This document shows positions 4,118-28,542 of a stretch of 64,000 nucleotides of DNA, piece by piece. A program made the translations under genes and the position numbers. Each line of letters opens with the position of its first letter. Position 1 is the stretch's first letter. The notes beneath the pieces were generated by a model that saw only the letters and a list, made by a program, of their open reading frames with translations, was not told where the DNA came from and made no database searches. This DNA comes from Candidatus Aminicenantes bacterium (GTDB taxonomy: Bacteria > Acidobacteriota > Aminicenantia > Aminicenantales > Aminicenantaceae), in assembly GCA_050115915.1 (NCBI GenBank), contig JASFPP010000001.1, forward strand, positions 3,116 to 67,115, in the 5' to 3' direction.

Positions 4118-4150
4118 TCGATTAGAGTTCTTATAGCATTATTGCTGGTA

Positions 4151-9679: not shown

Positions 9680-10742
9680 GCTTTGGAGTGGTGGCCTCCA
9701 TACACTTCATGTCGTCACACGTCTGTTTGTAACACGGAGAGCAGTCCACTCCCGCATAAAGCTTGACTCCCCGGTCGTAGAGGTCGATCTCCTGCGGGCA
9801 GGTCGGCCCGAAGAGGGCGACGATTGTCTTCTCCTGGGCGATGGCCAGATGCATCCCCAGTGTATCCGAAGTAACGACTATGTCCATAAACGATAAAAAA
9901 CCAGCGAACTCGAGAAGAGAGTTGTCGGTCCCTGTGTTGTAGATCTTGTGTTTTGAGTTTTTTTCGATGAATTGGTTCAATTCTCTTTCTCTTTGTCCAC
10001 CCAACAGGAAAATATTGGCTTCGACGTTCTCGCTTAAATAATCGACCAGTGTTAAGTAGTTCAGAGGCGGCCACTGTTTGGTCTCGAACTTCACTCCCGC
10101 ACCCGTATTGAATCCTATGGCCACTCGTCCCTCGGAGATGTCATGCTTTTTAAAAAAATCTCTGGCTCTCGTTTTATGGGAATCCTCGATTGCGAACACA
10201 TAGGGGTCTCTTTTGTATTCGATCTCCGCAGTTTTAGCGATGATCTCCTGGTAGGTCATCGTGTTCTCTTTGAACTTGAGGTCGTCATCGATGCCCAGTT
10301 GATAGGCATATTCCGCCTCTGCATTAAGTGGAATAAGATTTCCCTGGGCATTCATCCCGAATCCGAATTTGTGCGGGCATTTGATAAGGGAGGCTACGGA
10401 GGTAGACGGAGGTTCCTTGTCGAGGGAGATGAGGACTTCGAACTCTTCGACAAGCAGCGGTATAATCGACTCCAGATTGTAGGACAACACCCTGTCGATA
10501 AAGGGATTGTTAAGCAAAAGATCCACACTTTCCTCATCCACAAGCCAGGAGATGTGGCTCTCGGGATATTTCCTCTTTACTCCATGGAGCAGAGCTGTTG
10601 TCCGCAGGACATCCCCCTGCGCCCGGCATTTGATGATCAGAATTTTTTTGGGGAAAGGTGTGTAGTGTGAGCATCCATCACAGAGAATCTTGAATTTACA
10701 GGGTTTGTCTCCTTTAAAGTATAAACAGTCGGCTTTGATCAC
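9648..10742 (-). CDS. Glycosyltransferase family 9 (heptosyltransferase-like) with extra N- and C-terminal Cys clusters
   Basis: 364 aa. GT9 signatures ILIIKCRAQGDVLRTTALL and VTSDTLGMHLAIA. Cys clusters DCLYFKGDKPCKFKILCDGCSHY and DCSPCYKQTCDDMKC. Confidence 0.85.
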   Translation of the reverse strand: MIKADCLYFKGDKPCKFKILCDGCSHYTPFPKKILIIKCRAQGDVLRTTALLHGVKRKYPESHISWLVDEESVDLLLNNPFIDRVLSYNLESIIPLLVEEFEVLISLDKEPPSTSVASLIKCPHKFGFGMNAQGNLIPLNAEAEYAYQLGIDDDLKFKENTMTYQEIIAKTAEIEYKRDPYVFAIEDSHKTRARDFFKKHDISEGRVAIGFNTGAGVKFETKQWPPLNYLTLVDYLSENVEANIFLLGGQRERELNQFIEKNSKHKIYNTGTDNSLLEFAGFLSFMDIVVTSDTLGMHLAIAQEKTIVALFGPTCPQEIDLYDRGVKLYAGVDCSPCYKQTCDDMKCMEATTPKHVFEEIQKLI

Positions 10743-10832: not shown

Positions 10833-11522
10833 TTATCGCAATTTGGGATTTTGAGGGATTGGTTTTTTATGATTTTCAGGAGCTTTGATACAGGTATAAG
10901 CGATATGGGGATACCAGTAGCCCGAATGTTGGGGTATAGGCTCAACGGAAAAGCCGATACTTTGAAGCATGTCCAGATACTCTTTCTGGCTCCGGAAATA
11001 AAATCGTTCGCCCAGTGTGAAGCCGATCAGTTTGACGGCCAGAGTTTCCTGGAAGAGATTCCAGGCGTATTTCCACCGCGGCCTGGTGTCCATTTCTTTG
11101 ATGATAAGGATTCCTCCAGGCAGCAGGGATTGATAACATTTCCGGATGATGAGCTCATGTTTGTCATAGGGGATTAAATAGAGGACGTCGACGAGTGTGA
11201 AAACGTCCCCTTGGGGATAATCCGCCTCGACGACGTTGCCGATTTTATAGGTAATTTGGCCGGCATTGGTTTTTGTTGCGTTAGCGATTTCGATCTTTTT
11301 TTCGTCCAGGTCAAGCCCGATGATCTCTCTTTCAGGCGATCCCAAGCTCAAGATGTTGGGAAAAAGCCCATTGCCGCAGCCCAAGTCGACGATCGTTCCC
11401 TCTTTGGGAAAAAGTCCCTCTAGCTGGAGAAGAGGACAGATCTTCAGCTTGATCTTGAGATAGGCCCGGGTGATGGATCCAGCCTTGCTGTAGTGTTCGA
11501 ACAGCTCTTTTTTATCGATCAT
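10833..11522 (-). CDS. Class I SAM-dependent methyltransferase
   Basis: 229 aa. Motif I is IVDLGCGNGLF. Confidence 0.8.
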   Translation of the reverse strand: MIDKKELFEHYSKAGSITRAYLKIKLKICPLLQLEGLFPKEGTIVDLGCGNGLFPNILSLGSPEREIIGLDLDEKKIEIANATKTNAGQITYKIGNVVEADYPQGDVFTLVDVLYLIPYDKHELIIRKCYQSLLPGGILIIKEMDTRPRWKYAWNLFQETLAVKLIGFTLGERFYFRSQKEYLDMLQSIGFSVEPIPQHSGYWYPHIAYTCIKAPENHKKPIPQNPKLR

Positions 11523-11628: not shown

Positions 11629-13515
11629 TCAATCCATGTAGCGGTTGTACCAGAACTGGAAAATGACAAGCGGCCACAACAACTGCCGGTGGTTGTGTGC
11701 GCCCTGGAGGTGCTCTCCCAGGATTCTTTCGATGGCAGCCGGATTGAAAAATCTGTGCTTGTTTAAATTTTCCGGGGAAAGGACATCCGTGACAAAATCC
11801 TTGAGTTCCTTCCTGATCCAGATGCCCAGGGGAATATCGAAACCGATCTTTTTTCGTGTCAAAATTTCGGGCGGAAGATAGGGGGCCATCGCTTTTTTCA
11901 GGATGTGTTTGGTCGTCAGCCCCTTGAGTTTCAAAGAACTGGGGATGGCCCTGGCATATTCGACGAACGTGTGGTCGAGGAAGGGCACGCGGATCTCCAG
12001 GGAGTTGGCCATGCTCATTCTGTCCGTTTTAACGAGGAGGTCGTCCTGGAGGTAGAGCTTGAGGTCCAGATACCCGATCCGGCTCACAGTGTCATTTGCC
12101 GAACAGTTGTCGAGATGGAAGGAGATGGGAGCGAATACGTCCTGGCTCAATTTTTCATGGACATCGGCCGCAAACAGTTTTTCCCTCTCCGAGGGTCCAT
12201 AAGCCCCCCACCAGATGAAGTTTGCAATTTCAGGAGGATAGTCGATACCCGATATGAATTTTTTAGCTTTGAATTCAAAGCTGAGCCTTTTTCTCGAAGC
12301 AGGAAGGATCTTGACGATGTTTTTAACGAGTCCGTCTCTTATGAACTTCGGCACTTTTCTGTAGAGCCGCGCCACCTGATAGGCTTTGTAGGTGTCATAC
12401 CCGGCGAAGAGCTCGTCCCCACCCTCACCAGCCAGCGCGACTGTGACATACTGACGGGCCAGTTTCGAGATCAAATAAGTGGGGATGACCGATGCATCGG
12501 CCAGCGGCTCATCCATATATTCGATCAGCTTGGGAACCAGTTTTCTCACGAGATTCGACTCCACGACAAATTCCTGGTGGTCGGTCTGGAAGCGGTCGGC
12601 CACGATCTTGGCGTATCCCAGCTCGTTAAACGTCTCCTCTTTGAAGCCAATGGAAAAGGTTTTAATCCTCGTATCCGCCACCTCGCTCATGAGCGCTGTA
12701 ATGGAGCTCGAATCCATCCCCCCGCTCAGGAAAACTCCCAGAGGCACATCGCTGATGAGTCGTCTCTTCACCGATCCTTTCAGCCGCGTGTAGATCTCCT
12801 CCATTATCACGGTTTCGTTTTTTGAGGAACCTAAACCATTGCCCTGTTGGATATCCCAGTATTGTTTGATCTGGACCATTCGATCGTTGACGATCATCAT
12901 ATGTCCTGGCAAGAGTTTTTTTATTCCCTTGAAAATCGTCTGGGGGGCAGGAATGTACTCGAAGCTGAAGAATCGCGACATCCCGTCAAAATCCAGTTCC
13001 CGGGGATAACCGGCCTCGAGGATGGATTTGATCTCGGAGGAAAAAACCAGGGAGTTGTCCGACTGCCAGTAGTGGAGCGGTTTTATCCCCAGCCTGTCCC
13101 TTACGAGAATGAGTGTGTTCGTTTTAAGATTCCAGAGAGCAATGGCGAACATGCCGTTCAACCGGGAGATAAAACTCTCCCCTTCCTCTTCGTAGAGATG
13201 GACGATCACTTCTGTGTCGGACTTTGTGGCGAAAGAGTGCCCCTTCTGGATGAGCTCTTCCCGTAATTCAGGAAAATTGTAGATCTCCCCATTATAGACC
13301 ACCCAGACGCTTTTATCCTCGTTCGCAATGGGCTGGTGTCCTGTAACAAGATCGATGATACTCAGGCGCCGCATCCCTAGAGCGACTTTGTTATCTCTGT
13401 AGTAGCCCTCATCGTCCGGACCACGGTGCGTCATCACAGCGCACATCTTTTTTGTCGTGTCCTCTGCTTCAGGACCCAGGCCGTTGAATCCATAAACGCC
13501 GCAGATGCCGCACAT
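11629..13515 (-). CDS. asnB: Asparagine synthase (glutamine-hydrolysing) family amidotransferase
   Basis: 628 aa. N-terminal nucleophile MCGICGVYG and PP-loop SGGMDSS. Confidence 0.9.
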   Translation of the reverse strand: MCGICGVYGFNGLGPEAEDTTKKMCAVMTHRGPDDEGYYRDNKVALGMRRLSIIDLVTGHQPIANEDKSVWVVYNGEIYNFPELREELIQKGHSFATKSDTEVIVHLYEEEGESFISRLNGMFAIALWNLKTNTLILVRDRLGIKPLHYWQSDNSLVFSSEIKSILEAGYPRELDFDGMSRFFSFEYIPAPQTIFKGIKKLLPGHMMIVNDRMVQIKQYWDIQQGNGLGSSKNETVIMEEIYTRLKGSVKRRLISDVPLGVFLSGGMDSSSITALMSEVADTRIKTFSIGFKEETFNELGYAKIVADRFQTDHQEFVVESNLVRKLVPKLIEYMDEPLADASVIPTYLISKLARQYVTVALAGEGGDELFAGYDTYKAYQVARLYRKVPKFIRDGLVKNIVKILPASRKRLSFEFKAKKFISGIDYPPEIANFIWWGAYGPSEREKLFAADVHEKLSQDVFAPISFHLDNCSANDTVSRIGYLDLKLYLQDDLLVKTDRMSMANSLEIRVPFLDHTFVEYARAIPSSLKLKGLTTKHILKKAMAPYLPPEILTRKKIGFDIPLGIWIRKELKDFVTDVLSPENLNKHRFFNPAAIERILGEHLQGAHNHRQLLWPLVIFQFWYNRYMD

Positions 13516-13590
13516 CGTCTTCCTCTGGTTCCCTAATGTATCTGAACACCGTTAGAATATCAATCCCCAACTCGGAGAGCGGAATTTCTG

Positions 13591-13801
13591 AAACTGTGAC
13601 GGTGATGAATCGCGTCGCGCTTTTGGAAGTTCCAATTGTGTGGTGGAGAAAACCGTATGGAGGGCCGGACGGGCATGGTACATCTCCCCAAGGGAGATGT
13701 GAGGGAGGCCCGGAATCGAGTGAAATTTCCTCGCTGGGGAAATTGAACGTGTTTTCGAAATCAACAATTGGAGCTTTCGGAAAGTCATTCATCACAGTTT
13801 T
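13591..13801 (+). repeat. T1 structured intergenic repeat, copy B (about 211 bp), oriented toward the B12-radical SAM gene
   Basis: Termini AAACTGTGAcggtgATGAAT (13591-) and ATTCATCACAGTTTT (-13801) are inverted repeats with a 5-nt bulge. Core 22-mer at 13635-13656. Perfect 9-bp hairpin ACATCTCCC-caa-GGGAGATGT at 13680-13700. Blocks shared with copies A and D. Confidence 0.8.
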
Positions 13802-13849
13802 GGAAAAGTTAGAGACGCGGAAGGAAAACGTGTGCGGGACATTGAGGTG

Positions 13850-13858
13850 TGGTATAAT
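13850..13858 (+). promoter_or_regulatory. Extended -10 box TGGTATAAT upstream of the B12-radical SAM operon
   Basis: TGnTATAAT match exactly 48 nt after the T1-B terminus, the same spacing as at T1-A. It lies 29 nt upstream of the TTG start at 13888. Confidence 0.45.
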
Positions 13859-13887
13859 TTGAGCCAAATTTTAAACGGACTGTTATT

Positions 13888-15276
13888 TTGAACGCAAACG
13901 AAGTCATCCTGCTCAACCCGCCGGGGGATAAACTCTACATCAGGGACTATTACTGCAGCTTTTCCTCCAAGGCCAACTACTACTGGCCGCCCCAGGACCT
14001 CATCTACCTCAGCGGAATTCTGGATGGAGAGTATAACGTCCGAGTGATCGATGCTATTATCAATAAAATGTCGGAGGAAGCTGTATTCAATGAGATCGTG
14101 GAATCCAGCGCCCGGGCTTTGATTTTCACAACCGGGACGGCAACGATGCAATCGGACCTCCGGTTGATGGAGCGGATCAAAGCCAAGACCGGTATAAAAA
14201 TTGTGGCCAGTGCTGGGATTTTGCCTTTTGTCGGGGAAGATCTTCTCGAGCGGCATCCCTATGTGGATGCCGTCATTCTGGATTTCACGAGCCCGAATAT
14301 TCGTGTTTTTCTCAAAGAAAACGGACAGATGGATTCACCTCTCCTGGGGCTTATCACAAGGAAAAATGGACAGTTTCTGAAGAGCACAGAGATGCCGCCG
14401 CGGACTTATGCTGTGCCTGTCCCCCGCCACGACCTCTTCGATTTTAAAAAATACCGGATCCCGATCGCCCGGAGATTCCCGTTCACTGTTGTTGTGACGT
14501 CGCTCGGCTGCCCTCACAGCTGCGGATTCTGCACGGCTGGTGCTTACGGTTACAGAACGAGGGATGTGGATGGAGTGATCGAAGAGCTTCGTTTGCTGAC
14601 TCGACTGGGTGTCAAGGAGATCCTATTCCAGGATCCCACGTTCACAATCAACACAAACCGTGTGGTCGAGATCTGCAGCAAAATGGTCGAAAACGCGTTC
14701 GATTTTACATGGAGCTGCAACGCCCACATCAAATCTTTCAACGAGGATAAGATCAAACACATGAAGGCAGCGGGATGCCATACGGTGTCGTTGGGCATCG
14801 AGAGCGGGAGCGATGAAATCCTCGAGAAGTATTCCAAAAAGATCACGACAGACGAGATTAAGAGTACGATTCGCATGCTGAACGCTTATAAGATCCATGT
14901 GCTGGGCTATTTTATCATCGGGCTTCCGGGGGATGACGAGGAATCCATCCGGAAGACGATCGATCTGGCCAAGGAGCTGGATATCGATTTTGCTTCATTT
15001 GCCATCGCTACTCCGGATGTGGGCACTCCACTGAGAGAAGAGGCCCTCCAGAAAGGATGGATGCGTCCCGAGGAGGATGTGTTCGACAGCACGGACTTCC
15101 CTGTGCTTGAGGCCGGAACTCTGTCGAAGGAGGAGGTCTGGAAGCTCAGAAACCAGGCAGTCCGGGAGTTTTACCTCAGGCCTTCTTATCTGTTCAAGAT
15201 GATCCGCCAGATCCGGAGTTTGCGCGATATCCAGGTGGCCGTCTCGAACGCCCTATCGCTTTTCCGAAAATCATGA
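13888..15276 (+). CDS. B12-binding-domain radical SAM enzyme (class B; HpnJ-like size and architecture)
   Basis: 462 aa. The N-terminal VILLNPPG.. region looks like a cobalamin-binding domain. CxxxCxxC motif in SLGCPHSCGFCTAG. TTG start. Confidence 0.85.
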   Translation: MNANEVILLNPPGDKLYIRDYYCSFSSKANYYWPPQDLIYLSGILDGEYNVRVIDAIINKMSEEAVFNEIVESSARALIFTTGTATMQSDLRLMERIKAKTGIKIVASAGILPFVGEDLLERHPYVDAVILDFTSPNIRVFLKENGQMDSPLLGLITRKNGQFLKSTEMPPRTYAVPVPRHDLFDFKKYRIPIARRFPFTVVVTSLGCPHSCGFCTAGAYGYRTRDVDGVIEELRLLTRLGVKEILFQDPTFTINTNRVVEICSKMVENAFDFTWSCNAHIKSFNEDKIKHMKAAGCHTVSLGIESGSDEILEKYSKKITTDEIKSTIRMLNAYKIHVLGYFIIGLPGDDEESIRKTIDLAKELDIDFASFAIATPDVGTPLREEALQKGWMRPEEDVFDSTDFPVLEAGTLSKEEVWKLRNQAVREFYLRPSYLFKMIRQIRSLRDIQVAVSNALSLFRKS

Positions 15277-16121
15277 AAAAAGTCATAATCAATGCCGATG
15301 ACTTCGGACTTGTCCAGGGAGTGAACGAGGGAATAATCAAAGCCCATAAAGAGGGCATCCTGACAAGCACAACACTTATGGCCAACATGCCGGGATTCGA
15401 TCAAGCCGTTGAATTGGCGGGGGCCCATCCGAATTTAGGCGTGGGTGTCCATCTCAATATCCTGAGAGGACAGCCCCTCTCACCGGTCGAGAAAGTGGAG
15501 AGCCTTCTCTCCAAAGACAGATGTTTTGTTCCAAGTGTGCCGCACCTCCTCCGTCGAATCTTGCTTAAACGTATAGGCATCGATGAGGTCGAGCGGGAGT
15601 TCAGGGCACAAGTGGAGAAGGTGAAGAATACCGGTCTCTCCCCCAGCCACATCGATAGCGAGAAACACATCCATATGATCCGGCCACTTTTCCGGATTGT
15701 CCTGAAGATAGCAAAGGAGTACAGGATCAACAGGGTACGGTTTATCCAGGAATGCTGTCTCTTCTTACGGCCCGGACAGATGTTGAAATCGATGCTCATC
15801 TCCCTGTCTTCAGCCTCCTTGAAAAAGAGGATGACGAATGAGGGGGTCCGATCACCTGACAGGTTTTATGGCGTTTGCGACAGCGGCCGGATTACCGCCG
15901 CTAAACTTAAAAAGGTCCTTCACAGAGTGAAGGAGGGTGTTACGGAAATTATGGTTCATCCTGGATTTATCACACAAGACATGTTAGAGTTAGAAACGAG
16001 AATCGGGCCTTATTACATCAATAAATACAGAGAGAAAGAGTTGAGTGCATTGCTCGATGAACGTTTGCCAGATGTCATTGCTGATCTGGGGATTCGGTTG
16101 ATAAATTTTAGTCATTTATGA
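15273..16121 (+). CDS. YdjC/ChbG/HpnK-family carbohydrate de-N-acetylase
   Basis: 282 aa. The N-terminus MKKVIINADDFGLVQGVNEGIIKAHKEGILTSTTLMAN is the YdjC signature. The start overlaps the rSAM stop (ATGA). Confidence 0.85.
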   Translation: MKKVIINADDFGLVQGVNEGIIKAHKEGILTSTTLMANMPGFDQAVELAGAHPNLGVGVHLNILRGQPLSPVEKVESLLSKDRCFVPSVPHLLRRILLKRIGIDEVEREFRAQVEKVKNTGLSPSHIDSEKHIHMIRPLFRIVLKIAKEYRINRVRFIQECCLFLRPGQMLKSMLISLSSASLKKRMTNEGVRSPDRFYGVCDSGRITAAKLKKVLHRVKEGVTEIMVHPGFITQDMLELETRIGPYYINKYREKELSALLDERLPDVIADLGIRLINFSHL

Positions 16122-16136
16122 TCGGTCAAAGATCCT

Positions 16137-17129
16137 ATGGATGAAAAACATATAAATCCGCAGATTTCGATCGTTGTTCCGTTTTATAACGAAGAAGACA
16201 ACATCAAAGAGCTCTATGAACAACTCACCCGGGTGCTTGGAGTGTTGGGCGCGTCGTACGAGCTGATCTTTATCGATGATGGGAGCACGGACCGCAGTCA
16301 TGACATATTGATTAAATTGTTCGCATCGGATAAAACCGTCAAAGTCATCCGGTTGCGTAAAAACTTCGGTCAAACGGCCGCTCTTCAGGCCGGATTCGAC
16401 CATGCCAGGGGAAAGATCATTATATCTATGGACGGGGACCTGCAGCATGATCCCGCAGATATCCCTAAACTATTGGCTCCAATAAGTGAGGGATTCGACA
16501 TTGCCTCTGGATGGAGAAAAGAACGGAAGGATAATTTTCTCCTGAGACGTTTTCCCTCCTGGGTGGCGAACCGCATCATGCGCCTCCTCTCTGGAGTTAA
16601 AATCCACGATTTTGGCACAACCTTTAAGGCCTACAGGAGAGATGTCCTCGAGGGGATCCGGCTTTACGGAGAGCTTCACCGTTTTATCCCTGCCCTTATC
16701 AGCCGGACGGGCGTAAAGATCACAGAGGTTCCGATCAAGAATGTGGTCCGCCAGAAAGGGAGATCCAAGTACGGCCTTTCGCGTATCCGCAGAGTGCTCT
16801 TCGACCTGATAACGGTCAAATTCATCATCAGCTTCATCGATCGGCCGCTGCAGTTTTTCGGACTGATCGGTATGATCCTCGGAGGGATCGGATTCACCAT
16901 CGCTCTTATCCTGACAGTGGGGTTTTACTTTTTTGAGTGGTCGATCCGGGACAACCTGGGGAATTTAATACTTGGTGTGTTCCTGATGATCCTGGGGCTC
17001 CAGTTCGTAATGACCGGCCTGCTGGCAGAGATCATCTCGCGGATCTATTTCACCACACACGAGATGCGGATCTACTCTGTGGCGGAGTTGAAGTCCCACG
17101 AACCTCCCGGGAGTGAAGAAGGGAGCTGA
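16137..17129 (+). CDS. GT2 polyprenyl-phosphate glycosyltransferase (ArnC/GtrB-like, two C-terminal TM helices)
   Basis: 330 aa. ISIVVPFYNEEDNI, FIDDGSTD and DGDLQHDP motifs. C-terminal hydrophobic helices. Paralog of 24396-25385. Confidence 0.85.
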   Translation: MDEKHINPQISIVVPFYNEEDNIKELYEQLTRVLGVLGASYELIFIDDGSTDRSHDILIKLFASDKTVKVIRLRKNFGQTAALQAGFDHARGKIIISMDGDLQHDPADIPKLLAPISEGFDIASGWRKERKDNFLLRRFPSWVANRIMRLLSGVKIHDFGTTFKAYRRDVLEGIRLYGELHRFIPALISRTGVKITEVPIKNVVRQKGRSKYGLSRIRRVLFDLITVKFIISFIDRPLQFFGLIGMILGGIGFTIALILTVGFYFFEWSIRDNLGNLILGVFLMILGLQFVMTGLLAEIISRIYFTTHEMRIYSVAELKSHEPPGSEEGS

Positions 17130-17155
17130 CCCAGGCCCTGGAAGAGGATAGGCTG

Positions 17156-19267
17156 TTGAACACCATTTTGTCCAGAAACGTTCAACAGAAAGCGGATCTT
17201 TTAATTTGGGTGGGCCTCGTCCTTTTCTGTGTTTTTATCCTTTGTCTTTTTATCCAATCCCTGGATGCCCTCTCTCTATGGATGGATGAAGGATTCTACT
17301 ATCTCGCCACTGAGAGGATCTTGGAACTGGGTTATCCTCTATTTCCTTCCGGACACATCTATTACAAAGCCATTTTGTATGCGTATGTTTCGGCTCTTTT
17401 CACCAAGATCTTTGGGTTCACAGTGTTCAATCTTAGGCTGATCAGCGTCCTGTGCACGATCGGTCTGATCCCTGTGCTTTATCTAGCGGGAAAAAAGCTG
17501 TTCAATCGAACGGTGGGTGTCGGTGCTGCCGTTGTTTTTTCTCTGTGTGTGTGGGTTGCCGAATACGGGCGCGTCGACCTCTACTTCGCCCCTCTTCAGC
17601 TTGTGAGTTTTGGCGGGCTTTATCTTTTTTACAGGGGATTTTTCGAGGAGAAAAAAACGTACAAAATATTTGCGACAGCGGTGTTTATCGCGGCACCCCT
17701 CGTCCATCAGCTGGGAATGAGCGTCTGGTTCTGTTATCCTGCTTTTTTCCTCGTCAAAGGGATACGAAGATTTGTCCGCAGGGATGTGCTTCTGAGTTTT
17801 TCTTTGACAACGGTGTTTTACATTCTTGTCCAGCTCCATGAGTATTTCTTCTGGGAAGTGGGGTATGTGTATGCCAAAACCGATCAGAGCATGCAGGGCA
17901 TGATCGAGTATTTTTTTGCCAGTTTTTCGCTCGACTATTTTTATGAGTTCTACGGCAGTTTTCCCCGAATGAGCCTGATCATCGGGGCCGGGAGTCTTCT
18001 CCTCCTCATCACCTTGTTTCGAGAAAGAAAAGCACAAGAATCCCGTACGCAATCCTTTTCGAAAAACTGGCTCTTTTTGTATCTCTGCCTGGTGTTCCCC
18101 CTGGTCTTCCTCGGCTTTTTCAGGACGCACGTCCAGCCCCGCTACCTCTACCAGCTGTATCCTCTTTTTGTTGTTCTCTATGCTGTTTGCCTTTTTCAGC
18201 TGTCACGGATCCTGATCGAGGTCTTGATGCTGCCTTACAAACAAAAAAGAGGCGCCGGTTTTTCGGTGGCAGCAGGAGTCCTTTTTGTGGCTCTTCTCTT
18301 TTTGACCGCAGAGGGCGTGGGTATCGGGAGGGTGAAGCGGATCGTCGATCGGCAGTATGGCGACTCCATCCAGACAGATATCGTCAACAGGTCGGGGAGA
18401 CATCAGCACTATGATCATAGAGGGCCGGGAGAGTATGTCCGGTACTTTCTCCGGGAAGATGACCTGGTTGTCGCCATCCATGTGGTCTTCCAAAACATCT
18501 ATGCAGGGAGGGTCGACTATTGGCTGTGGTCCGGGGGGCCCGGGACCTGGGATGCATGGGAGGAGACATCCGAGGGATGGAAGGATTTTTATATCGGAGC
18601 CAGGTGGATCAATAATCTGGAAGACCTGAGACAGGTGCTGGAAAAGGATCCCCAAAGGAGGGTTTGGATCATCGCATCTCCCTCTATCCTTCGCAGGGAT
18701 CACATCAACGCAAACATCGCTCGGTTCATCCAACGAGACCCGGAGAAGCTCGTATTTCGGGGCAAAGACGGTATGTCAGAGGTTTATCTATGGAATGACG
18801 CGACAGGGGCTCTAACAGGGCCCCCGTGCACGATGGAGGGAGAATGGATGCCTGCGCTTTTTGGGAAGGCCGTTTTCGAAGAAAATGCTTCAAGAGGCTG
18901 TGCTTTTTATATGCCCAAACAGAAGGAGGGCGGGAAACTCAGTTCCTACAAGACGGGGCAGGCATATTTTCCCGGGCGTTATTCGGTGTCTTTACGGGTT
19001 AAGGCCGAGGATTTCGAACGCGCTGGTGACCGATTGTTGGGCGTTGCCCTTCTCGACAGGCCTGGGGGAGACGAAGTGGTCTCTTACTTTATTACCGGAG
19101 ACAGGATCCAGGAAGGAGTGGATTACCAGGTTTATAGCTTCGATTATTATCAGAACAAGGAAAGTCAAATATATCTGAAGTTTTTATTCACAGGTCGAGG
19201 GAATGTGTGGCTCGATTATGTGGACATAAAGCCAGTGATTGAACCTCCGGCGGATAAATTTCCGTAG
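17156..19267 (+). CDS. GT-C fold membrane glycosyltransferase (ArnT/PMT-like, GT39/GT83-type) with C-terminal soluble domain
   Basis: 703 aa with about 11 hydrophobic segments. The first-loop acidic motif LWMDEGFYY is typical of ArnT/PMT enzymes. About 250 aa of non-membrane C-terminus. TTG start preceded by GGAAGAGGA. Confidence 0.75.
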   Translation: MNTILSRNVQQKADLLIWVGLVLFCVFILCLFIQSLDALSLWMDEGFYYLATERILELGYPLFPSGHIYYKAILYAYVSALFTKIFGFTVFNLRLISVLCTIGLIPVLYLAGKKLFNRTVGVGAAVVFSLCVWVAEYGRVDLYFAPLQLVSFGGLYLFYRGFFEEKKTYKIFATAVFIAAPLVHQLGMSVWFCYPAFFLVKGIRRFVRRDVLLSFSLTTVFYILVQLHEYFFWEVGYVYAKTDQSMQGMIEYFFASFSLDYFYEFYGSFPRMSLIIGAGSLLLLITLFRERKAQESRTQSFSKNWLFLYLCLVFPLVFLGFFRTHVQPRYLYQLYPLFVVLYAVCLFQLSRILIEVLMLPYKQKRGAGFSVAAGVLFVALLFLTAEGVGIGRVKRIVDRQYGDSIQTDIVNRSGRHQHYDHRGPGEYVRYFLREDDLVVAIHVVFQNIYAGRVDYWLWSGGPGTWDAWEETSEGWKDFYIGARWINNLEDLRQVLEKDPQRRVWIIASPSILRRDHINANIARFIQRDPEKLVFRGKDGMSEVYLWNDATGALTGPPCTMEGEWMPALFGKAVFEENASRGCAFYMPKQKEGGKLSSYKTGQAYFPGRYSVSLRVKAEDFERAGDRLLGVALLDRPGGDEVVSYFITGDRIQEGVDYQVYSFDYYQNKESQIYLKFLFTGRGNVWLDYVDIKPVIEPPADKFP

Positions 19268-19337
19268 GGAATGAATCAAACAATCGAAACTTATCAATAT
19301 GAATGAGCGAACGGAGAAGAAACGAAAGGAGGGTGGG

Positions 19338-20090
19338 ATGAACAACGATTTTCGGGGGAGTGTGCAGAAGGAGCTCATCGATAAAAGGGGATCTTTTTTT
19401 TCCAAGTATTCCTCACTGTTTCTTGGCAGGAAAAATCTCTTTTCGTTTCTCAGGTATGAGTGTGTGCTTCTGCTCTTCTCAGGGGTGCCCGGGGCGCTGG
19501 GCTTCTTCCTACGGAAAGTTTTCTACCCTGGCTTATTCAAACAGGTTGGGAAAGGCGTGGTCTTCGGACGGAACATTACCCTACGGCATCCCAAGAAGAT
19601 CTCTATAGGCGCGAATACCTTCATCGACGACAACGTGGTGCTCGACGCGAAGGGCGAGGAAAACCAGGGGATAATCATCGGAGAAAATGTCTATATCGGC
19701 CGGAATACCATCTTGAGCTGCAAAGAGGGTTCGATATCCCTAGATGATTTCTGCAACATCTCGGCCAACTGTATGCTCCTCTCAGAGACGGATATCCGTT
19801 TAGGAAAATACTGCTTTTTAGCGGGGCAATGCTACCTCGTGGCCGGCGGGAATCACACATTCGATGACATATCCGTTCCGATCATGTTCCAGCCCTCCTA
19901 TTCCAAAGGGGGAATCACCGTCGGTGAGGATGTTTGGCTGGCAGCCGGCGTTATTGTCCTGGATGGGATCAATGTCGGCAAAGGGACCGTTGTTGGCGCA
20001 GGATCCGTAGTCACCGAATCCCTCCCTGAGTATTGTATTGCTGTCGGAAGTCCCGCCCAAAAGATCAAAGACAGAAAGATTGCCGTTTAA
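19338..20090 (+). CDS. Hexapeptide-repeat (LbH) acyl/acetyltransferase with N-terminal membrane anchor
   Basis: Hexapeptide repeats (ISIGANTFIDDNVVL, VYIGRNTIL, WLAAGVIVLDGINVGKGTVVGAGSVV). The ATG at 19338 is preceded by AAGGAGG; the ORF track start is 19299. Confidence 0.8.
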   Translation: MNNDFRGSVQKELIDKRGSFFSKYSSLFLGRKNLFSFLRYECVLLLFSGVPGALGFFLRKVFYPGLFKQVGKGVVFGRNITLRHPKKISIGANTFIDDNVVLDAKGEENQGIIIGENVYIGRNTILSCKEGSISLDDFCNISANCMLLSETDIRLGKYCFLAGQCYLVAGGNHTFDDISVPIMFQPSYSKGGITVGEDVWLAAGVIVLDGINVGKGTVVGAGSVVTESLPEYCIAVGSPAQKIKDRKIAV

Positions 20091-20111: not shown

Positions 20112-21350
20112 CTAAGATTTTTTTGTGTGAGTTTTTTCTTCCAGTTCCTGTATGACAACCGAGCAGGCCATGTTCCCCACCACGTTGACACATGTCCGGA
20201 CCATATCGAGTAGCCTCTCGACACCCAGTATGAGGGCGATCCCCTCGAGAGGGATGCCCAACTGCTTCAGGACCAGAGCCAGGGCGATAATCCCGGCCAT
20301 GGGGACGCCGGCTGCTCCGATGGAGGCCATAACGGCCATGAGAACGATCGTGACCTGACCGGTTAAGCCCAAGGGGATGCCGTATATCTGGGCGATGAAG
20401 ACCGCAGACACTCCCTGGTAGAGCGCTGTGCCGTCCATGTTGACAGTCGAACCCAGGGGAATCACGAAGCTGGAGTACTCGCGTTTGACTCCGATGTGCT
20501 CGACACTCTCCATGGCAACGGGAAGGGTAGCCATGGAGCTGGAGGTACTGAAGGCGATGATGATGGCTTCTTTGACAGCTCTGAAGAAATAGAGGGGATT
20601 GGTCCGCCCGAGAACGCTGACAGCTAAGCTGTTAAAGGTGATCCCGTAGAGGATTAATCCCCCTATGACCACAGTGCAGTACTTGAGCAGGGTGAACAGG
20701 ATATCCATCCCGAATCGTCCGATCACTGCTGCGCTGAGGGCGAATACGCCGTAGGGTGCCACTTTCATGACCAAGTGGACGACTTGAATGAAAATATCAT
20801 TGAGGGCATCCAGCATCTTGACCAGGAAATCGGATTTCTCCGTCGGGATGAGCGTGAGAACGATGCCGAAGAGGATGGCCATAAATATGATCTGGAGCAT
20901 GTTGCCGTCGATGAAGGCCTTGACGGGATTCTTGGGGACGATATTGACCAGGATCTCGACGATGGATGGTTTTTCTTCCATCCGTTTGATCCCATCCTGG
21001 GCTCTGGCCTCATAGTTCTCCATGAGTTGGGTTTGGACCGTCTCGGGCAGGCCCTCGCCGGGATTGGCGGTGTTGGCCAAAAAGAGACCCACGCAGATGG
21101 CGATGATCGTTGTGATGACAAAATAAAGGGACGTCTTGGCCCCGATCCGGCCTAGCTTTTTGATGTCTCCCAGGCTGGCAGTCCCCAGCATCAGGGAGAC
21201 GAACACCAGGGGGACCACGATCATGGTGATCAGGTTGAGAAAGACGGTCCCGATGGGTTCGATGAACAAGACCTTTTCTTTAAAAATAAGACCGGCAATG
21301 ATCCCAAGGATGAGTCCGAGGAAGATTTTGGTGTGGAGTTTGATTTTCAT
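20112..21350 (-). CDS. Dicarboxylate/amino acid:cation symporter (DAACS/GltP family)
   Basis: 412 aa, polytopic. It has typical family segments, for example SSSMATLPV and NMDGTALYQGV. Confidence 0.9.
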   Translation of the reverse strand: MKIKLHTKIFLGLILGIIAGLIFKEKVLFIEPIGTVFLNLITMIVVPLVFVSLMLGTASLGDIKKLGRIGAKTSLYFVITTIIAICVGLFLANTANPGEGLPETVQTQLMENYEARAQDGIKRMEEKPSIVEILVNIVPKNPVKAFIDGNMLQIIFMAILFGIVLTLIPTEKSDFLVKMLDALNDIFIQVVHLVMKVAPYGVFALSAAVIGRFGMDILFTLLKYCTVVIGGLILYGITFNSLAVSVLGRTNPLYFFRAVKEAIIIAFSTSSSMATLPVAMESVEHIGVKREYSSFVIPLGSTVNMDGTALYQGVSAVFIAQIYGIPLGLTGQVTIVLMAVMASIGAAGVPMAGIIALALVLKQLGIPLEGIALILGVERLLDMVRTCVNVVGNMACSVVIQELEEKTHTKKS

Positions 21351-21371: not shown

Positions 21372-22130
21372 CTATTGCTTCCGGGCCTTGTATATAAAAT
21401 TGGATGTGCTGTCGAATCGGCCGGATGCCGGGAGAAACTTTTCTATCGTGAATCCCCTCTCCTCCAGGAATTCTTTGATCTCTTCCGGGTAGTAGTGATG
21501 CCGTATCGGAACAAAATACCAATCCATGATAAGCTCTTCCAGCTTTTCCCCCTTTCGGGATTTTTCCCGTTTTTTGAAAAAGAAAACGACGGGAGAGAGA
21601 AACACGGCAAGGATTTTGGAGAGTGCTTTCCATGATTTTTTTGGCGTCCGCAGCAGTGTTTTCCGGATGATCTCGTGGATAAAGGTCGCTTTGGTTTTGG
21701 TGTAGACGGCAAGGAGTAGGGAGCCCCCCTTTTTCAGGACTCTGATCAGTTCTTCGATTGCGCCGAAAGGGTCGGTGGTGTGGTGGGCCGTACCCCAGGC
21801 CCAGACTATATCGAAACTCTCATCCGCAAAGGGAAGCTCGAGCATGTCCTCTTTCTGGAACTGTGCTGTTTCCAAGTTGAATCTGTCTTTTAAGGTCTTT
21901 GCTGTTTCGAGGCTTCCCTCGCTGATGTCGATCCCGGTGACATTGCCCGCACCGTTTTTTGCGAAAATGATACTGAATATGCCTGTTCCGCAACCCGCGT
22001 CGAGAACTTTTTTCCCGGCCACCTCTGTGCCGGAATAAAAGATCTTCCAGTGATTTTCCGATTCCTCATATTCGGGAATATACTCCGTCCAAACGACGTC
22101 ATAGAATTTACTGACTTTTTCTTTATCCAT
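21372..22130 (-). CDS. Class I SAM-dependent methyltransferase
   Basis: 252 aa. Motif I is VLDAGCGTGIF. Confidence 0.8.
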   Translation of the reverse strand: MDKEKVSKFYDVVWTEYIPEYEESENHWKIFYSGTEVAGKKVLDAGCGTGIFSIIFAKNGAGNVTGIDISEGSLETAKTLKDRFNLETAQFQKEDMLELPFADESFDIVWAWGTAHHTTDPFGAIEELIRVLKKGGSLLLAVYTKTKATFIHEIIRKTLLRTPKKSWKALSKILAVFLSPVVFFFKKREKSRKGEKLEELIMDWYFVPIRHHYYPEEIKEFLEERGFTIEKFLPASGRFDSTSNFIYKARKQ

Positions 22131-22223
22131 CTGAGCTTGTCTCTGCCTTTTTAGCCTATCGATTCATGTTTTAAAATAGAAGATATCTTATAGACTTATC
22201 TCTTGCAAGTCAATCGGGATGAG

Positions 22224-23231
22224 TTAAAGCCAGTTGTGGGCTTTCGACCACTCCACGGTTTGTAAAATTCCCTCCGCAAAGCTGATCTTTGGGGAATAGC
22301 CAAGCTCTTGTTTGGCTTTTTGGATCGCCAGCGGTTTGGGGTGGATGAAAAAGCTCAGTCTCCCTCGGGTAAGAGGCGCTTCTTTTTTAAAAAGGGCAAA
22401 GGTCCTCTCCAGGACTGATGCAGCCATTATCACGGGAAAAAGGGGAAGGGAGATCGGCGGGATCTTGTTTCCCGCTGTCGATGCGATTGTGGCTACGATA
22501 TCCTTCACACTTAAGACTTCGCTCCCGGCGATGTGATAAATTTGGCCCTTCCGCCCCATCTCTGCGCACAGGAAAACGCCCTCCACCAGGTCGTCGATGT
22601 GGACGGGCGTCTGCTGCGCATTCCCCTTTGTCACGAGCAAAAATCTTTTTTTGGCGATAGCTTTTATGAGTTTAAATGTTCGCCGATCCCCGGGCCCATA
22701 GGCCCACCCCGGCCTGACGATGGCGATGTCCATTCCCTCTTCTGCAAATTGCCGAGCGATGTTCTCTCCCTCGAGCTTGCTCCGGTCATAACTGTTTTGG
22801 GGGTTTGGAACGAAGTCCTCGTTGGCCGCTTCGCCCCCTTCAACTGATCCCAAAACACCCGCAGAGCTGAAATGGACAGTTTTTGGGATACCGGCTGCTT
22901 TTGCAGCTTGGAGCACGTTTTTTGTCCCCTCAGCGTTTATACGAAAAAATTCGTTTTCTGAGAGGATCGATGCGCCCAAGGCGGCTGCACAGTGGAAGAG
23001 AAGATCCACTCCCTCAAAGATTCCTTCCAGAGTCACCGGGCTTGTGATGTCGCCTTTAACGACCTCATAGCTTTGACTGTTTGACCCCTTTCTTCCCATT
23101 GGACGTGTGTGCTGGAAGACACGGACATTCCATTTTTTTCGAAGACATCCCTCGATCAGGGCACGGCCGATGAATCCCGATGCTCCTGTGATAAACGCTC
23201 TCATCGTGATAAGACCCTTATCCCTTCGCAC
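22224..23231 (-). CDS. NAD-dependent sugar epimerase/dehydratase (SDR family)
   Basis: Rossmann motif FITGASGFIGRAL. The likely true start is ATG 23204 (MRAFITG..); the ORF track start at 23231 is GTG and overlaps the GT4 gene. Confidence 0.85.
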   Translation of the reverse strand: MRRDKGLITMRAFITGASGFIGRALIEGCLRKKWNVRVFQHTRPMGRKGSNSQSYEVVKGDITSPVTLEGIFEGVDLLFHCAAALGASILSENEFFRINAEGTKNVLQAAKAAGIPKTVHFSSAGVLGSVEGGEAANEDFVPNPQNSYDRSKLEGENIARQFAEEGMDIAIVRPGWAYGPGDRRTFKLIKAIAKKRFLLVTKGNAQQTPVHIDDLVEGVFLCAEMGRKGQIYHIAGSEVLSVKDIVATIASTAGNKIPPISLPLFPVIMAASVLERTFALFKKEAPLTRGRLSFFIHPKPLAIQKAKQELGYSPKISFAEGILQTVEWSKAHNWL

Positions 23232-24384
23232 CCATAGCTGTATCGAGAACTTGAGCTATTTTATCTTTATAACGGGGATACGTGTAGTCACGGTCGGCAT
23301 TTTCCTTAGCTGCCCTCGCCCTTTCTTGAGCTCTGCTGTCAAAAAGGGCATAGGCGATTCCCTCAGCCATACACTCCGCATCGGGCTCGACAAGGACGGA
23401 TATCTGGTCGTTCAGGACCTGCGTGTGTGTCCAGAGGTTCGTGGCCACGAGCGGCTTTCCTGATTTGAGAAAGGAGTAGATTTTGAGCGGGGTGTTCGTT
23501 CCGGATAGACGGGGCGAGACCAAGACATCAGCCAGGCCGATAAAGAGAGGCATTTGTGCGGGAGGAACCTGTCCTGTAAAAAAGACTTTCTCAGCGATCC
23601 CCAGTTCGCGGGCCTTTTCCTTTTCCCTCTCGACAGCAGCCGGACTCTCTCCCACGAGCAGGAAGACGACTCTGTCATTCTGGAATTGGGATGCGGCCTC
23701 CAATAAAAGCGATATCCCCTGGTAAGGCTGGAAATTACCCGCATAAAGCACGATTTTTTTATCCTTGGGGACAAATTCTTCACGTTTTTGTCTGATCTCC
23801 TCTTGAGTGAATTCCTCTGTTTCGAAATCGATGAAATTTTCGAGGAGAATTGCCTTTGCAGCATAGCCCTCTTTTTCGACCTGTTTGAGGAGATCGAGGC
23901 AGATCACGATGATTGCCCGCGAATTCTTCAGGATGAACCGCTCCATGCTTATAAAGATTCTTTTCAGAAGCCTGGATCGCGAAAAATTGAAATTCTCCAG
24001 CTGTTGGGGAAGACTGGAATGCATATCGTAGATGTGGGGTGTTCGCGATAGCTTGCTCAGGATAACTCCAAAAAGAGCCCCCTCTTCATGAGAGAAGACG
24101 AGATCGTACCTGTTTCGCAATAGCAATCCGCTTGCCTTGAGAAAAAGGAGAAAATCGAGGGGTATCTTTTTGAGCGAAGGACCGATCTTGATCTTTTTTA
24201 TGAAAAAAAGATTGGGGATCCTGGAGATCTTAAGGTTTTTGATCTCTTTGTCCTCTCCCAGGTGATAGGTCACAAGATCGACATCGTGTCCGAGGTCGGA
24301 GAGGGCCCTGATTCTTTGGTAAACGCTGATGGGTGTTCCCCGTGGCTGGAAGAAGGGTTCCGGGGCGAGCATTAGAATTTTCAT
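23218..24384 (-). CDS. Glycosyltransferase family 4 (GT-B, RfaG/WcaL-like)
   Basis: 388 aa. N-terminal MKILMLAPEPFFQPRGTPISV. The C-terminal GT1/GT4 core contains LVSPRLSGTNTPLKIYSFLKSGKPLVAT. Confidence 0.85.
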   Translation of the reverse strand: MKILMLAPEPFFQPRGTPISVYQRIRALSDLGHDVDLVTYHLGEDKEIKNLKISRIPNLFFIKKIKIGPSLKKIPLDFLLFLKASGLLLRNRYDLVFSHEEGALFGVILSKLSRTPHIYDMHSSLPQQLENFNFSRSRLLKRIFISMERFILKNSRAIIVICLDLLKQVEKEGYAAKAILLENFIDFETEEFTQEEIRQKREEFVPKDKKIVLYAGNFQPYQGISLLLEAASQFQNDRVVFLLVGESPAAVEREKEKARELGIAEKVFFTGQVPPAQMPLFIGLADVLVSPRLSGTNTPLKIYSFLKSGKPLVATNLWTHTQVLNDQISVLVEPDAECMAEGIAYALFDSRAQERARAAKENADRDYTYPRYKDKIAQVLDTAMGAKG

Positions 24385-24395
24385 TGATCTTCAGC

Positions 24396-28386: not shown

Positions 28387-28542
28387 CGCGGTACGGGATG
28401 TCCTCATTGTTTAATGGAGAAAACCGTTTGAAGGGATAAACGGGCGCGTGGCGTCGCCCATGGGAGGTGCCCCATGTTTGAAGGAAGTTACTTCGCAGGG
28501 GAAAGGGATCGGAATTTCGTTTTCGATATCATACTACAGGGG
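28387..28542 (+). repeat. T1 structured intergenic repeat, copy D (shorter, about 156 bp), oriented toward the atp operon
   Basis: ATTGTTTAATGGAGAAAACCGT (18 of 22 match to the A/B core), CTTCGCAGGGGAAAGG and CGTTTTCGATATCA blocks occur in the same order as in A and B. The termini are degenerate, so the boundaries are approximate. Confidence 0.6.

Follow-up and report, generated by a model that had tools for sequence, protein, structure and literature searches.

The window analysed here spans 64 kb of the metagenome-assembled genome of Candidatus Aminicenantes, a sediment bacterium not yet in culture, and contains a cluster of five plus-strand genes flanked by a divergent and a convergent operon on the minus strand:

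8891-9679, minus: short DPM1-like GT2, distal in the divergent operon
9648-10742, minus: GT9, heptosyltransferase-like, distal in the divergent operon
10833-11522, minus: class-I SAM methyltransferase (Pfam methyltransferase domains)
11629-13515, minus: exopolysaccharide-associated glutamine amidotransferase, AsnB-type (Asn_synthase, 356 bits)
13569-13818, unstranded: hairpin-forming repeat element of about 250 bp with nested inverted repeats, in the divergent promoter region
13888-15276, plus: radical SAM enzyme (rSAM) of a family nearest HpnJ and AprD4 (Radical_SAM, 100 bits)
15273-16121, plus: YdjC-family de-N-acetylase (YdjC, 227 bits over the full length)
16137-17129, plus: ArnC/GtrB-type polyprenyl-phosphate GT2 (Glycos_transf_2, 130 bits)
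17156-19267, plus: GT-C fold glycosyltransferase (PMT_2, 34 bits)
19299 or 19338-20090, plus: left-handed beta-helix hexapeptide acetyltransferase of the WcaF/O-acetyltransferase type (Hexapep, 46 bits)
21372-22130, minus: methyltransferase, convergent operon 21372-25385
22224-23231, minus: HpnA-like SDR, same operon
23218-24384, minus: GT4, same operon
24396-25385, minus: second ArnC-type GT2, same operon

The five plus-strand genes are tightly packed: the YdjC gene is translationally coupled to the rSAM gene through an ATGA stop/start overlap at 15273-15276, and the remaining intergenic gaps measure 15, 26 and 31-70 bp. The sequence-only reading of this DNA had described five such co-directional genes with this overlap, and both points stand, the coordinates being exact and the typing right by Pfam; the HMM assignment that it proposed returned Radical_SAM, YdjC, Glycos_transf_2, PMT_2 and Hexapep. 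A chance origin of the cluster is ruled out by the identical five-gene order in many independent assemblies, recurring down to about 59% rSAM identity. For the GT-C protein the long TTG start at 17156 is better than the start of the 661-residue version of the gene callers, because the latter drops TM1 and leaves the invariant D44/E45 N-terminal. The ATG at 19338, earlier taken as the start of the hexapeptide gene, is indeed preceded by a GGAGG ribosome-binding site, but the start is ambiguous, the gene callers choosing 19299.

The radical SAM protein has its CxxxCxxC motif at C208/C212/C215, and an N-terminal Rossmann-like domain in its AF2 model (pLDDT 91). Its best match among the curated NCBIfam HMMs is HpnJ (TIGR03471; 188.1 bits against a cut-off of 577.6), with 144.3 bits for AprD4 (NF033070; cut-off 500); it shares 28% identity with Burkholderia HpnJ and about 22% with AprD4, which is among its nearest relatives by sequence as well as by fold. 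The best PDB match of the model is AprD4 (6fd2; TM-score 0.81, E 1e-27), with MgmA, TsrM, OxsB and TokK clearly lower at 0.62-0.70; the best PDB match of a true HpnJ is likewise AprD4. In the neighbor-joining tree against HpnJ that had been called for, the rSAM family and HpnJ form separate clades. The family is large: grouped at 50% identity, it comprises no fewer than 150 clusters with scores above 424 bits. A tblastn search of plasmids returned reference sequences of true HpnJ along with distantly related rSAMs from glycan clusters of another make-up; the neighbourhoods inspected (Azospirillum, Solidesulfovibrio) had no YdjC gene and were thus no guide to function.

The earlier description of this enzyme as B12-binding was not borne out: there is no match to the B12-binding domain PF02310 even at E<=10, where a true HpnJ scores only 24 bits for this domain, and AprD4, the closest structure, is a diol dehydratase that binds no cobalamin (PMC12931638). 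These observations bear on the alternative that the enzyme is a cobalamin-dependent class B C-methyltransferase acting on the amino sugar in an otherwise unchanged pathway. To judge from the model, the Rossmann-like domain could bind cobalamin; precomputed annotation records PF02310 for about half of the rSAM homologues; and the protein's scores with the models of PhpK, BchE and further B12-rSAMs are significant, if far sub-threshold. Beyond the undetected domain and the AprD4 fold, however, the gene module already has a conserved or fused class-I methyltransferase, the rSAM family includes a fusion to an SDR, and at a locus with extra rSAM paralogues bearing clear B12 domains (L046) the YdjC-adjacent rSAM has none. 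On balance, we consider C-methylation unlikely.

The YdjC/ChbG/HpnK-family assignment of the second protein was confirmed by the full-length Pfam match; the protein stays below the cut-offs for HpnK (TIGR03473; 193.3 bits, cut-off 232.6) and ChbG (NCBIfam; 178 bits, cut-off 227), and shares 32% identity with Burkholderia HpnK. By its sequence this enzyme looks active, since it is full length and keeps the conserved catalytic residues: the Asp-Asp of the NADDFG motif is present, and H60, H126, H134 and H229 are invariant. No TM segments are predicted in it or in the rSAM protein, which is consistent with chemistry at the cytoplasmic face. The GT2 has the C-terminal TM helices previously noted, two being predicted at residues 237-301, and its best solved relatives are ArnC (9hwj; E 3.5e-55 over the full length) and, second, GtrB (1e-38), with DPMS at 4e-27. 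It is not an ArnC equivalog (NCBIfam, 195 bits, cut-off 529), falls below the cut-off for PgfS (NCBIfam, 174 bits), and matches HpnI in a marginal and non-specific way (22.6% identity, E 1.5e-4).

A possible counterpart to this set of enzymes is the HpnI/HpnK/HpnJ system of bacteriohopanetetrol glucosamine and cyclitol ether, which likewise combines a GlcNAc transferase, a YdjC deacetylase and an rSAM, the last belonging broadly to one subgroup with the present enzyme. By analogy, the GT2 would glycosylate a membrane lipid alcohol, the YdjC enzyme deacetylate the product and the rSAM contract the ring to a cyclitol ether, with the GT-C functionally separate. In its favor, the curated HMMs that fit best are those of HpnJ and HpnK, the neighbouring genes include an HpnA-like SDR, and ring contraction has been proposed for the rSAMs HpnJ, leading to BHT cyclitol ether, and Cds, the calditol synthase (PMC13459092). 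Against this, the Hpn scores are all under cut-off (188/577.6, 193/232.6 and 168/368), the identities to HpnJ and HpnK are only those given above, the GT2 is of the ArnC/GtrB type, the rSAM family lies in a clade apart from HpnJ, and its strong linkage to GT-C genes would be left unexplained. Moreover, the HpnJ TIGRFAM is reported to be confined to genomes with SHC and HpnH (bioRxiv 10.1101/2025.07.29.667474), and neither shc nor hpnH turned up in the 64 kb of the window or among those flanks that had been annotated. We thus agree with the earlier view that this is not simply an hpnIJK variant, and regard a hopanoid-like head group as very unlikely.

In the GT-C protein, residues 9-393 form a membrane part of several helices, with the invariant D44/E45 (DE motif) in the TM core, and are followed by about 310 soluble residues that comprise a conserved periplasmic alpha/beta domain and then a CBM-like beta-sandwich at about 570-700, in keeping with its earlier typing as a membrane core with a soluble C-terminal part. 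Foldseek ranks ArnT first; the enzyme is not clearly ArnT-type. The CBM-like domain suggests a glycan acceptor, such as the LPS core/O-chain or another polysaccharide. Protein O-mannosyltransferases (GT39) combine a PMT core with a luminal MIR domain and use a protein acceptor, and the GT-C could correspondingly be a PMT-like protein O-glycosyltransferase, analogous to actinobacterial Ppm1/Pmt, that places the modified amino sugar on secreted or S-layer proteins. This we deem quite improbable: no MIR domain was found in the GT-C, its PMT_2 match is weak, the CBM-like domain points to carbohydrate binding, and the surrounding genes are LPS-/EPS-like (GT9, GT4, EPS-type AsnB). A further candidate acceptor is the phosphate of lipid A (or Kdo), where a cationic amino sugar would lower the envelope charge and the rSAM would be an extra tailoring enzyme. 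The triad of GT2, YdjC and GT-C matches exactly that of the Francisella FlmF2/NaxD/FlmK and Bordetella LgmA/LgmC/LgmB systems (PMC11279074, PMC4993483), and the ArnT rank in Foldseek and the heptosyltransferase-like GT9 point the same way; nonetheless, we hold this acceptor to be rather unlikely. In comparison with FlmK/LgmB, the present GT-C has the large periplasmic domain with its CBM-like module.

The hexapeptide protein had been described as a membrane-anchored acyltransferase; the acyltransferase family holds, but the anchor amounts to only one weak hydrophobic segment. It scores 94 bits for the WcaF family (cut-off 192), and its best PDB matches are O-acetyltransferases (WcaF, LacA/Maa). 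Its resemblance to these, and not to N-acyltransferases, leaves the suggested re-acylation of the amine weakly founded.

To delineate the conserved module we considered 66 informative loci, defined by a complete rSAM gene and at least 3 kb downstream. YdjC is adjacent to the rSAM in 37 of these, each with a GT2, and in 63 of the 66 either YdjC is adjacent or a GT-C lies just downstream. The deep core is a translationally coupled set of GT2, class-I methyltransferase, rSAM and YdjC that extends to Ca. Omnitrophota, where the four genes run in this order with 4-bp overlaps; GT2 and methyltransferase are fused in L046 and L047, the latter continuing with YdjC and then a GT-C. Other fusions in the rSAM family join it to an SDR, a methyltransferase, a GT4 or an FAD oxidoreductase. 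In the rSAM-methyltransferase fusion P0462 the methyltransferase part is closest to the product of 10833-11522, which shares 32-36% identity with the methyltransferases of the GT2-MT-rSAM-YdjC operons and is the orthologue of the enzyme that other phyla couple or fuse with GT2 and rSAM. Certain TPA assemblies are labelled 'uncultured Eubacteriales' or 'Planctomycetales'; these labels are unreliable, the NCBI names pointing to Aminicenantes and Omnitrophota.

In Aminicenantes the opposite-strand AsnB and methyltransferase travel with the rSAM-YdjC-GT2 core. Among NCBIfam models, AsnB scores highest with the XrtA/PEP-CTERM amidotransferase (615 bits, cut-off 817). Wherever a YdjC-type Aminicenantes locus has enough flank, AsnB is adjacent, and in L016, L018, L064 and L069 it is co-directional with the core. 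The five genes had thus been misdrawn as the functional unit, AsnB and the methyltransferase being linked to the deep core more tightly than the GT-C and the hexapeptide transferase, which are lineage add-ons. The GT9 and the DPM1-like GT2 are kept beside asnB and the methyltransferase gene in L010, L013, L014 and L022, and the GT9 alone in L006, where the contig ends. Five-gene loci whose flanks reach far enough all keep the SDR and GT4, at 8.5-9.5 kb downstream from the rSAM, and the convergent operon is likely part of one glycan island with the cluster. A second layout occurs in about half of the Aminicenantes-type loci: the rSAM stands beside GT-C paralogues and methyltransferases, and neither YdjC nor GT2 is present within 10 kb. 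Therefore, the rSAM does not necessarily act on the product of YdjC, or YdjC and GT2 are encoded elsewhere.

Taken together, the cluster probably directs the synthesis of a carrier-lipid amino sugar, its deacetylation, radical remodelling and attachment to the envelope. We favor, at somewhat better than even confidence, remodelling of the carrier-lipid-linked amino sugar at the cytoplasmic face, feeding a periplasmic GT-C. We infer all steps from the genes present, the families and folds assigned to them, their synteny and the fusions; every equivalog score lies under its curated cut-off, hence no function is directly transferred. The GT2 would first transfer a HexNAc from a nucleotide sugar to polyprenyl phosphate. 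The YdjC enzyme would then remove the N-acetyl group, as do NaxD, itself a YdjC-family deacetylase, and LgmC on undecaprenyl-P-HexNAc, for which there is thus precedent (PMC11279074), and HpnK on hopanoid-linked GlcNAc. Next, the rSAM would abstract hydrogen from the ring of the sugar with its amine now free, although it may instead act on a nucleotide sugar or the finished glycan; HpnJ and AprD4 both act on de-N-acetylated GlcN rings (PMC13459092, PMC5461906). We favor a 1,2-diol dehydration of the AprD4 type, giving a deoxy-keto sugar for subsequent reduction by an SDR, with the HpnA-like SDR (22224-23231) as the candidate partner; the SDR-rSAM fusion mirrors the AprD4/AprD3 pair. Cobalamin-dependent C-methylation and an HpnJ-like rearrangement are the alternatives at this step, but if the ring were contracted as proposed for HpnJ, the glycosidic phosphate needed by the GT-C would be lost, and the pathway model would then fail. 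Further tailoring may be carried out by the class-I methyltransferase and, in Aminicenantes, also by the EPS-type AsnB and the O-acetyltransferase. Finally, the sugar would be flipped, no flippase being encoded within the cluster, and transferred by the GT-C to an envelope acceptor.

AprD4/AprD3 catalyze the C3' deoxygenation of paromamine, with its GlcN ring bearing a free 2-amine, in apramycin biosynthesis. Likeness to this pair lies in the closest solved structure and in the reductase partner, paralleled here by the SDR fusions and the SDR of the adjacent operon; its substrate, however, is a soluble pseudodisaccharide of secondary metabolism and not a carrier-lipid sugar. In FlmF2/NaxD/FlmK and LgmA/LgmC/LgmB an ArnC-type GT2, a carrier-lipid deacetylase and periplasmic GT-C transfer act together (PMC11279074, PMC4993483), and all three enzyme classes recur in the present cluster, whereas its radical SAM, class-I methyltransferase, AsnB and acetyltransferase are absent from those systems. 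ArnC/ArnD/ArnT and GtrA/GtrB/GtrC similarly pair a GT2 with C-terminal TM helices and a GT-C transferase, with optional deacylation on the lipid, but ArnD has a deacylase fold other than YdjC, these systems lack radical chemistry, and their flippases, ArnE/F and GtrA, are without counterpart in the present cluster. The hopanoid system differs in its GT2, its gene context and the absence of the GT-C linkage. As the sequence-only reading had noted, an HpnJ-related rSAM is joined in this cluster by a polyprenyl-phosphate GT2, a de-N-acetylase of the YdjC family and a GT-C, and no characterised pathway with the exact five-gene combination was known to that reading; our literature search found, among the papers covered, none mentioning radical SAM and YdjC together, and the union of a carrier-lipid amino sugar with a radical enzyme has not been previously described.

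More tentatively, and with the balance tilted against it, we suggest that this large unstudied family contains the first radical SAM enzyme acting on a polyprenyl-phosphate-linked sugar, and represents, on the carrier lipid, the third branch of a recurring scheme in three steps (transfer of GlcNAc, its de-N-acetylation and radical chemistry of the AprD4/HpnJ type) already known on 2-deoxystreptamine and hopanoids. If so, an amino sugar that is deoxygenated, methylated or rearranged in some other way would be a lineage-wide envelope decoration in Aminicenantes and Omnitrophota, two widespread uncultured phyla of anoxic sediments, and radical SAM chemistry would extend to carrier-lipid-linked sugars. 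Such an unusual sugar could be a biomarker, or shape phage and antimicrobial interactions, and the genes would offer a tractable system for HpnJ/AprD4-type reactions because they are expressible in E. coli with polyprenyl-phosphate substrates.

The divergent asnB-MT-GT9-GT2 operon on the other strand was found as previously outlined. In the 372-bp leader, Rfam searches at gathering level and at E<=1 detected no cobalamin or other riboswitch. Promoter-like signals occur at shuffle expectation and terminator-like ones at only about twice that, and none of them marks the boundary of an operon. A conserved structured leader was considered and rejected, the strong fold there being the repeat element (RNA fold z -4.4; no Rfam match), which is probably the 'T1-B' of the earlier reading. 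A 108-residue reading frame (13536-13862) reported by gene callers is probably spurious, having no Pfam match, being poorly conserved and lying on the inserted repeat. The same region spans only about 128 bp in relatives L005-L009 and L038, and further copies of the element occur at 2930-3042 of the window and twice in L011.

The cluster consists of five co-directional ORFs at the coordinates given by the sequence-only reading, whose domain labels are borne out by profile matches. As that reading had noted, it is flanked by a divergent asnB-MT-GT9-GT2 operon, and a convergent operon lies on its other side (rSAM, radical SAM enzyme; MT, class-I methyltransferase):

8891-9679 (-), DPM1-like GT2
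9648-10742 (-), GT9
10833-11522 (-), MT
11629-13515 (-), asnB
13888-15276 (+), rSAM (Radical_SAM, 100 bits)
15273-16121 (+), YdjC-family protein (YdjC, 227 bits, full length)
16137-17129 (+), GT2 (Glycos_transf_2, 130 bits)
17156-19267 (+), GT-C (PMT_2, 34 bits)
19299/19338-20090 (+), hexapeptide protein (Hexapep, 46 bits)
20112-21350 (-), sodium:dicarboxylate (SDF) symporter
21372-22130 (-), MT
22224-23231 (-), HpnA-like SDR
23218-24384 (-), GT4
24396-25385 (-), second ArnC-like GT2

The stop codon of the rSAM gene overlaps the start codon of the YdjC gene in an ATGA (15273-15276), as proposed, and the other intergenic gaps of the cluster measure 15-70 bp. Three JGI metagenomes and one SRA assembly contain copies identical to this cluster, and the rSAM matches MGD8537088.1, a protein of a Candidatus Aminicenantes MAG, at 100% identity. 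In other assemblies, gene callers place the GT-C start at an internal ATG (window 17282), yielding a 661-aa protein; this call is disfavoured because it would drop the first transmembrane (TM) helix and place the invariant catalytic D44/E45 pair, which follows that helix, at the N-terminus. The long TTG start at 17156 (703 aa) chosen earlier is right, with homologues of ~700 aa and an N-terminal helix modelled at high confidence. Between asnB and the rSAM gene is inserted a MITE-like element of ~250 bp (13569-13818), an imperfect long-hairpin repeat also found at 2930-3042 and 28406-28435, and at 8-148 and 8929-9091 of L011 (L numbers denote loci of relatives from genome and metagenome scans); the relatives L005-L009 and L038 have only ~128 bp in its place. 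A 108-aa ORF that gene callers predict on this element (13536-13862) is probably spurious. The symporter gene, wedged convergently against the cluster, is more conserved across the five-gene loci (91-96% identity) than its glycan-gene neighbours.

We collected 38 loci from a scan of one genome per species with the rSAM alignment as query, and 75 from metagenomes with the alignment of the non-Aminicenantes clade as query; both sets were analysed by tblastn. The gene order recurs, with all five genes present in 14 of the 55 loci that have at least 6.3 kb downstream, although some loci are duplicated between the collections. Layout A, seen in Aminicenantes, is rSAM-YdjC-GT2, usually followed by the GT-C and hexapeptide genes, with asnB-MT placed divergently or, in L016, L018, L064 and L069, downstream on the same strand. 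In layout B, from other Aminicenantes lineages with rSAMs 57-63% identical, the order is GT-C orthologue, small outer-membrane protein, an MT overlapping the rSAM start, rSAM, another MT and a second GT-C paralogue; YdjC and GT2 are both absent within 10 kb of the rSAM. In layout C the genes GT2-MT-rSAM-YdjC overlap one another by 4 bp, and one or two more rSAMs often come next; the MAGs concerned are Ca. Omnitrophota by NCBI names and Planctomycetales in TPA records. GT2 and MT are fused into one protein in L046 and L047, and in L047 a PMT_2 GT-C comes after YdjC. In 66 loci the rSAM is complete and followed by at least 3 kb of sequence; of these, 37 have a YdjC next to the rSAM, in every case together with a GT2, and 63 have either an adjacent YdjC or a GT-C just downstream of the rSAM. 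The SDR and GT4 genes seen in the window are retained in the five-gene clade, 8.5-9.5 kb downstream of the rSAM. The cluster is a real, conserved and uncharacterised pathway: its deep cross-phylum unit is GT2, MT, rSAM and YdjC, which a GT-C often accompanies and to which Aminicenantes add AsnB and the acetyltransferase.

Several further features of these loci were observed. The second GT-C paralogue (~790 aa) lies directly downstream of the rSAM in many Aminicenantes (L048 12521-14902; L054-L097), with neither YdjC nor GT2 nearby, and is absent from the window by tblastn. From the pair at window 669-2798 / 3140-4969 (-), the 709-aa GDSL/SGNH hydrolase has an orthologue just upstream of the layout-B GT-C block, and the SPASM-type rSAM beside ksgA is likewise retained close to the cluster in L010, L014 and L022. 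In L046 (4331-13478) and L047 (1-8663, 13886-19397) the non-Aminicenantes module sits amid as many as six additional radical SAM genes of B12 and SPASM types, and L047 also encodes a 2163-aa multi-glycosyltransferase protein, suggesting much heavier tailoring in these lineages. TPA titles such as 'uncultured Eubacteriales/Clostridia/Planctomycetales bacterium' (L004, L008, L009, L011, L013 and others) are unreliable: these records carry genes 60-86% identical to Aminicenantes proteins or are Omnitrophota by NCBI names.

The rSAM carries the CxxxCxxC motif and the family-specific invariant motifs RDYYCSFS and WPPQDL, and has no TM segment. The label 'B12-binding' given to it earlier is not supported, no such domain being detectable even at E<=10; in L046, clear B12 domains are found in the accessory rSAMs but none in the YdjC-adjacent one. 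Among curated HMMs it matches HpnJ best (188 bits, cut-off 577.6) and then AprD4 (144 bits against a cut-off of 500), both sub-threshold. AprD4 is the closest solved relative both by sequence (E 3e-30) and by fold (TM-score 0.81/0.82 for an AF2 model with pLDDT 91), and cobalamin enzymes reach only 0.62-0.70 against this model; AprD4 is also the best PDB match of a true Burkholderia HpnJ. AprD4, a 1,2-diol dehydratase that works without cobalamin (PMC12931638), modifies the GlcN ring of paromamine, with AprD3 as partner reductase (PMC5461906). By exhaustive profile search the rSAM family is large, as at least 150 clusters (50% identity) have full-length scores above 424 bits, and the search recovered these fusion proteins:

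P0441, NAD-dependent epimerase/dehydratase-type SDR fused to rSAM
P0453 and P0462, rSAM fused to class-I MT (that of P0462 being closest to the window MT at 10833-11522)
P0425, rSAM fused to GT4
P0480, rSAM fused to FAD oxidoreductase

In a quick NJ tree the YdjC- or GT-C-linked rSAMs all fall in one clade, apart from HpnJ, plasmid rSAMs and the extra rSAM paralogues of layout C.

As for the other proteins, the GT2 has solved ArnC structures as its best full-length matches (E 3.5e-55), followed by GtrB and dolichol-P-mannose synthase, and is predicted from its sequence to be a polyprenyl-phosphate glycosyltransferase, with a score below the ArnC equivalog cut-off (195 versus 529 bits); its expected C-terminal TM helices number two. 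The YdjC protein lacks a TM segment and has kept the Asp-Asp and His residues that are conserved in its family; its scores fall slightly short of the HpnK and ChbG cut-offs. In the GT-C, residues 9-393 form the membrane part, after which come ~310 soluble residues. The hexapeptide protein is nearer O-acetyltransferases (WcaF, LacA/Maa, polysialic-acid O-acetyltransferase) than amino-sugar N-acyltransferases, and its supposed membrane anchor comes down to one weak hydrophobic segment. AsnB is closest to exopolysaccharide-associated XrtA/PEP-CTERM amidotransferases (615 bits, sub-threshold).

From gene content, family and fold assignments, synteny and fusions we infer the biochemical steps of the pathway, for which a three-step carrier-lipid route is the most economical mechanism. 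A polyprenyl-P-HexNAc would be made at the cytoplasmic face and then de-N-acetylated, in the manner of NaxD (PMC11279074) and the Lgm pathway (PMC4993483), whereupon the rSAM would attack the free-amine sugar. AprD4/AprD3-type deoxygenation is the favoured chemistry on account of the structural proximity to AprD4, the SDR-rSAM fusion together with the SDR close by, the fact that a class-I MT is encoded separately, and B12 domains that are clear in accessory rSAMs and not in this one. Cobalamin-dependent C-methylation by the rSAM is a serious alternative. HpnJ-like ring contraction, itself only putative for HpnJ (PMC13459092), is less compatible, as it would remove the anomeric centre and so fit poorly with onward transfer by the GT-C. 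Counting against the three-step model are layout B with no nearby YdjC or GT2, the sub-threshold values of all the equivalog scores, the lack of a flippase gene in the cluster, and AsnB, to which the model assigns no role. A stand-alone LPG_synthase_TM protein of the MprF flippase-domain type is encoded ~33 kb from the cluster (53533-54477, -), and in the Burkholderia reference locus L044 a gene of this kind lies between hpnI and hpnK; the window protein is possibly a lipid-linked-sugar flippase, though a remote candidate.

A hopanoid (Hpn) reading was rejected, given Hpn scores below cut-off, identities of 28% to true HpnJ and 32% to true HpnK, and a GT2 that is not HpnI-like. The window and the annotated flanks contain neither shc nor hpnH, and HpnJ domains have been reported solely from SHC+HpnH genomes (bioRxiv 10.1101/2025.07.29.667474). 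The closest known kind of system is the carrier-lipid amino-sugar route of FlmF2/NaxD/FlmK and LgmABC, unlike which the present cluster has an rSAM, MT, AsnB, acetyltransferase and a different GT-C architecture. In the literature searched, no paper was found in which both 'radical SAM' and 'YdjC' occur.

The CBM-like domain of the GT-C (residues ~570-700) and the LPS/EPS-like character of the surrounding genes (GT9, GT4, EPS-type AsnB, and Wzm/Wzt at 35-37 kb) suggest a glycan as its acceptor, although this may instead be lipid A or protein. The Wzm/Wzt ABC-2 transporter pair (35109-37310, +), whose Wzt has a C-terminal carbohydrate-binding domain, implies an ABC-transporter-dependent, terminally modified glycan, which could be the GT-C acceptor. 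The second ArnC-type polyprenyl-phosphate GT2 (24396-25385, -) scores 228 bits to ArnC, above the first GT2, and shares the convergent operon with the HpnA-like SDR, GT4 and MT (21372-24384, -). Hence two carrier-lipid sugar donors may be made in the island, and the window contains a single GT-C gene.
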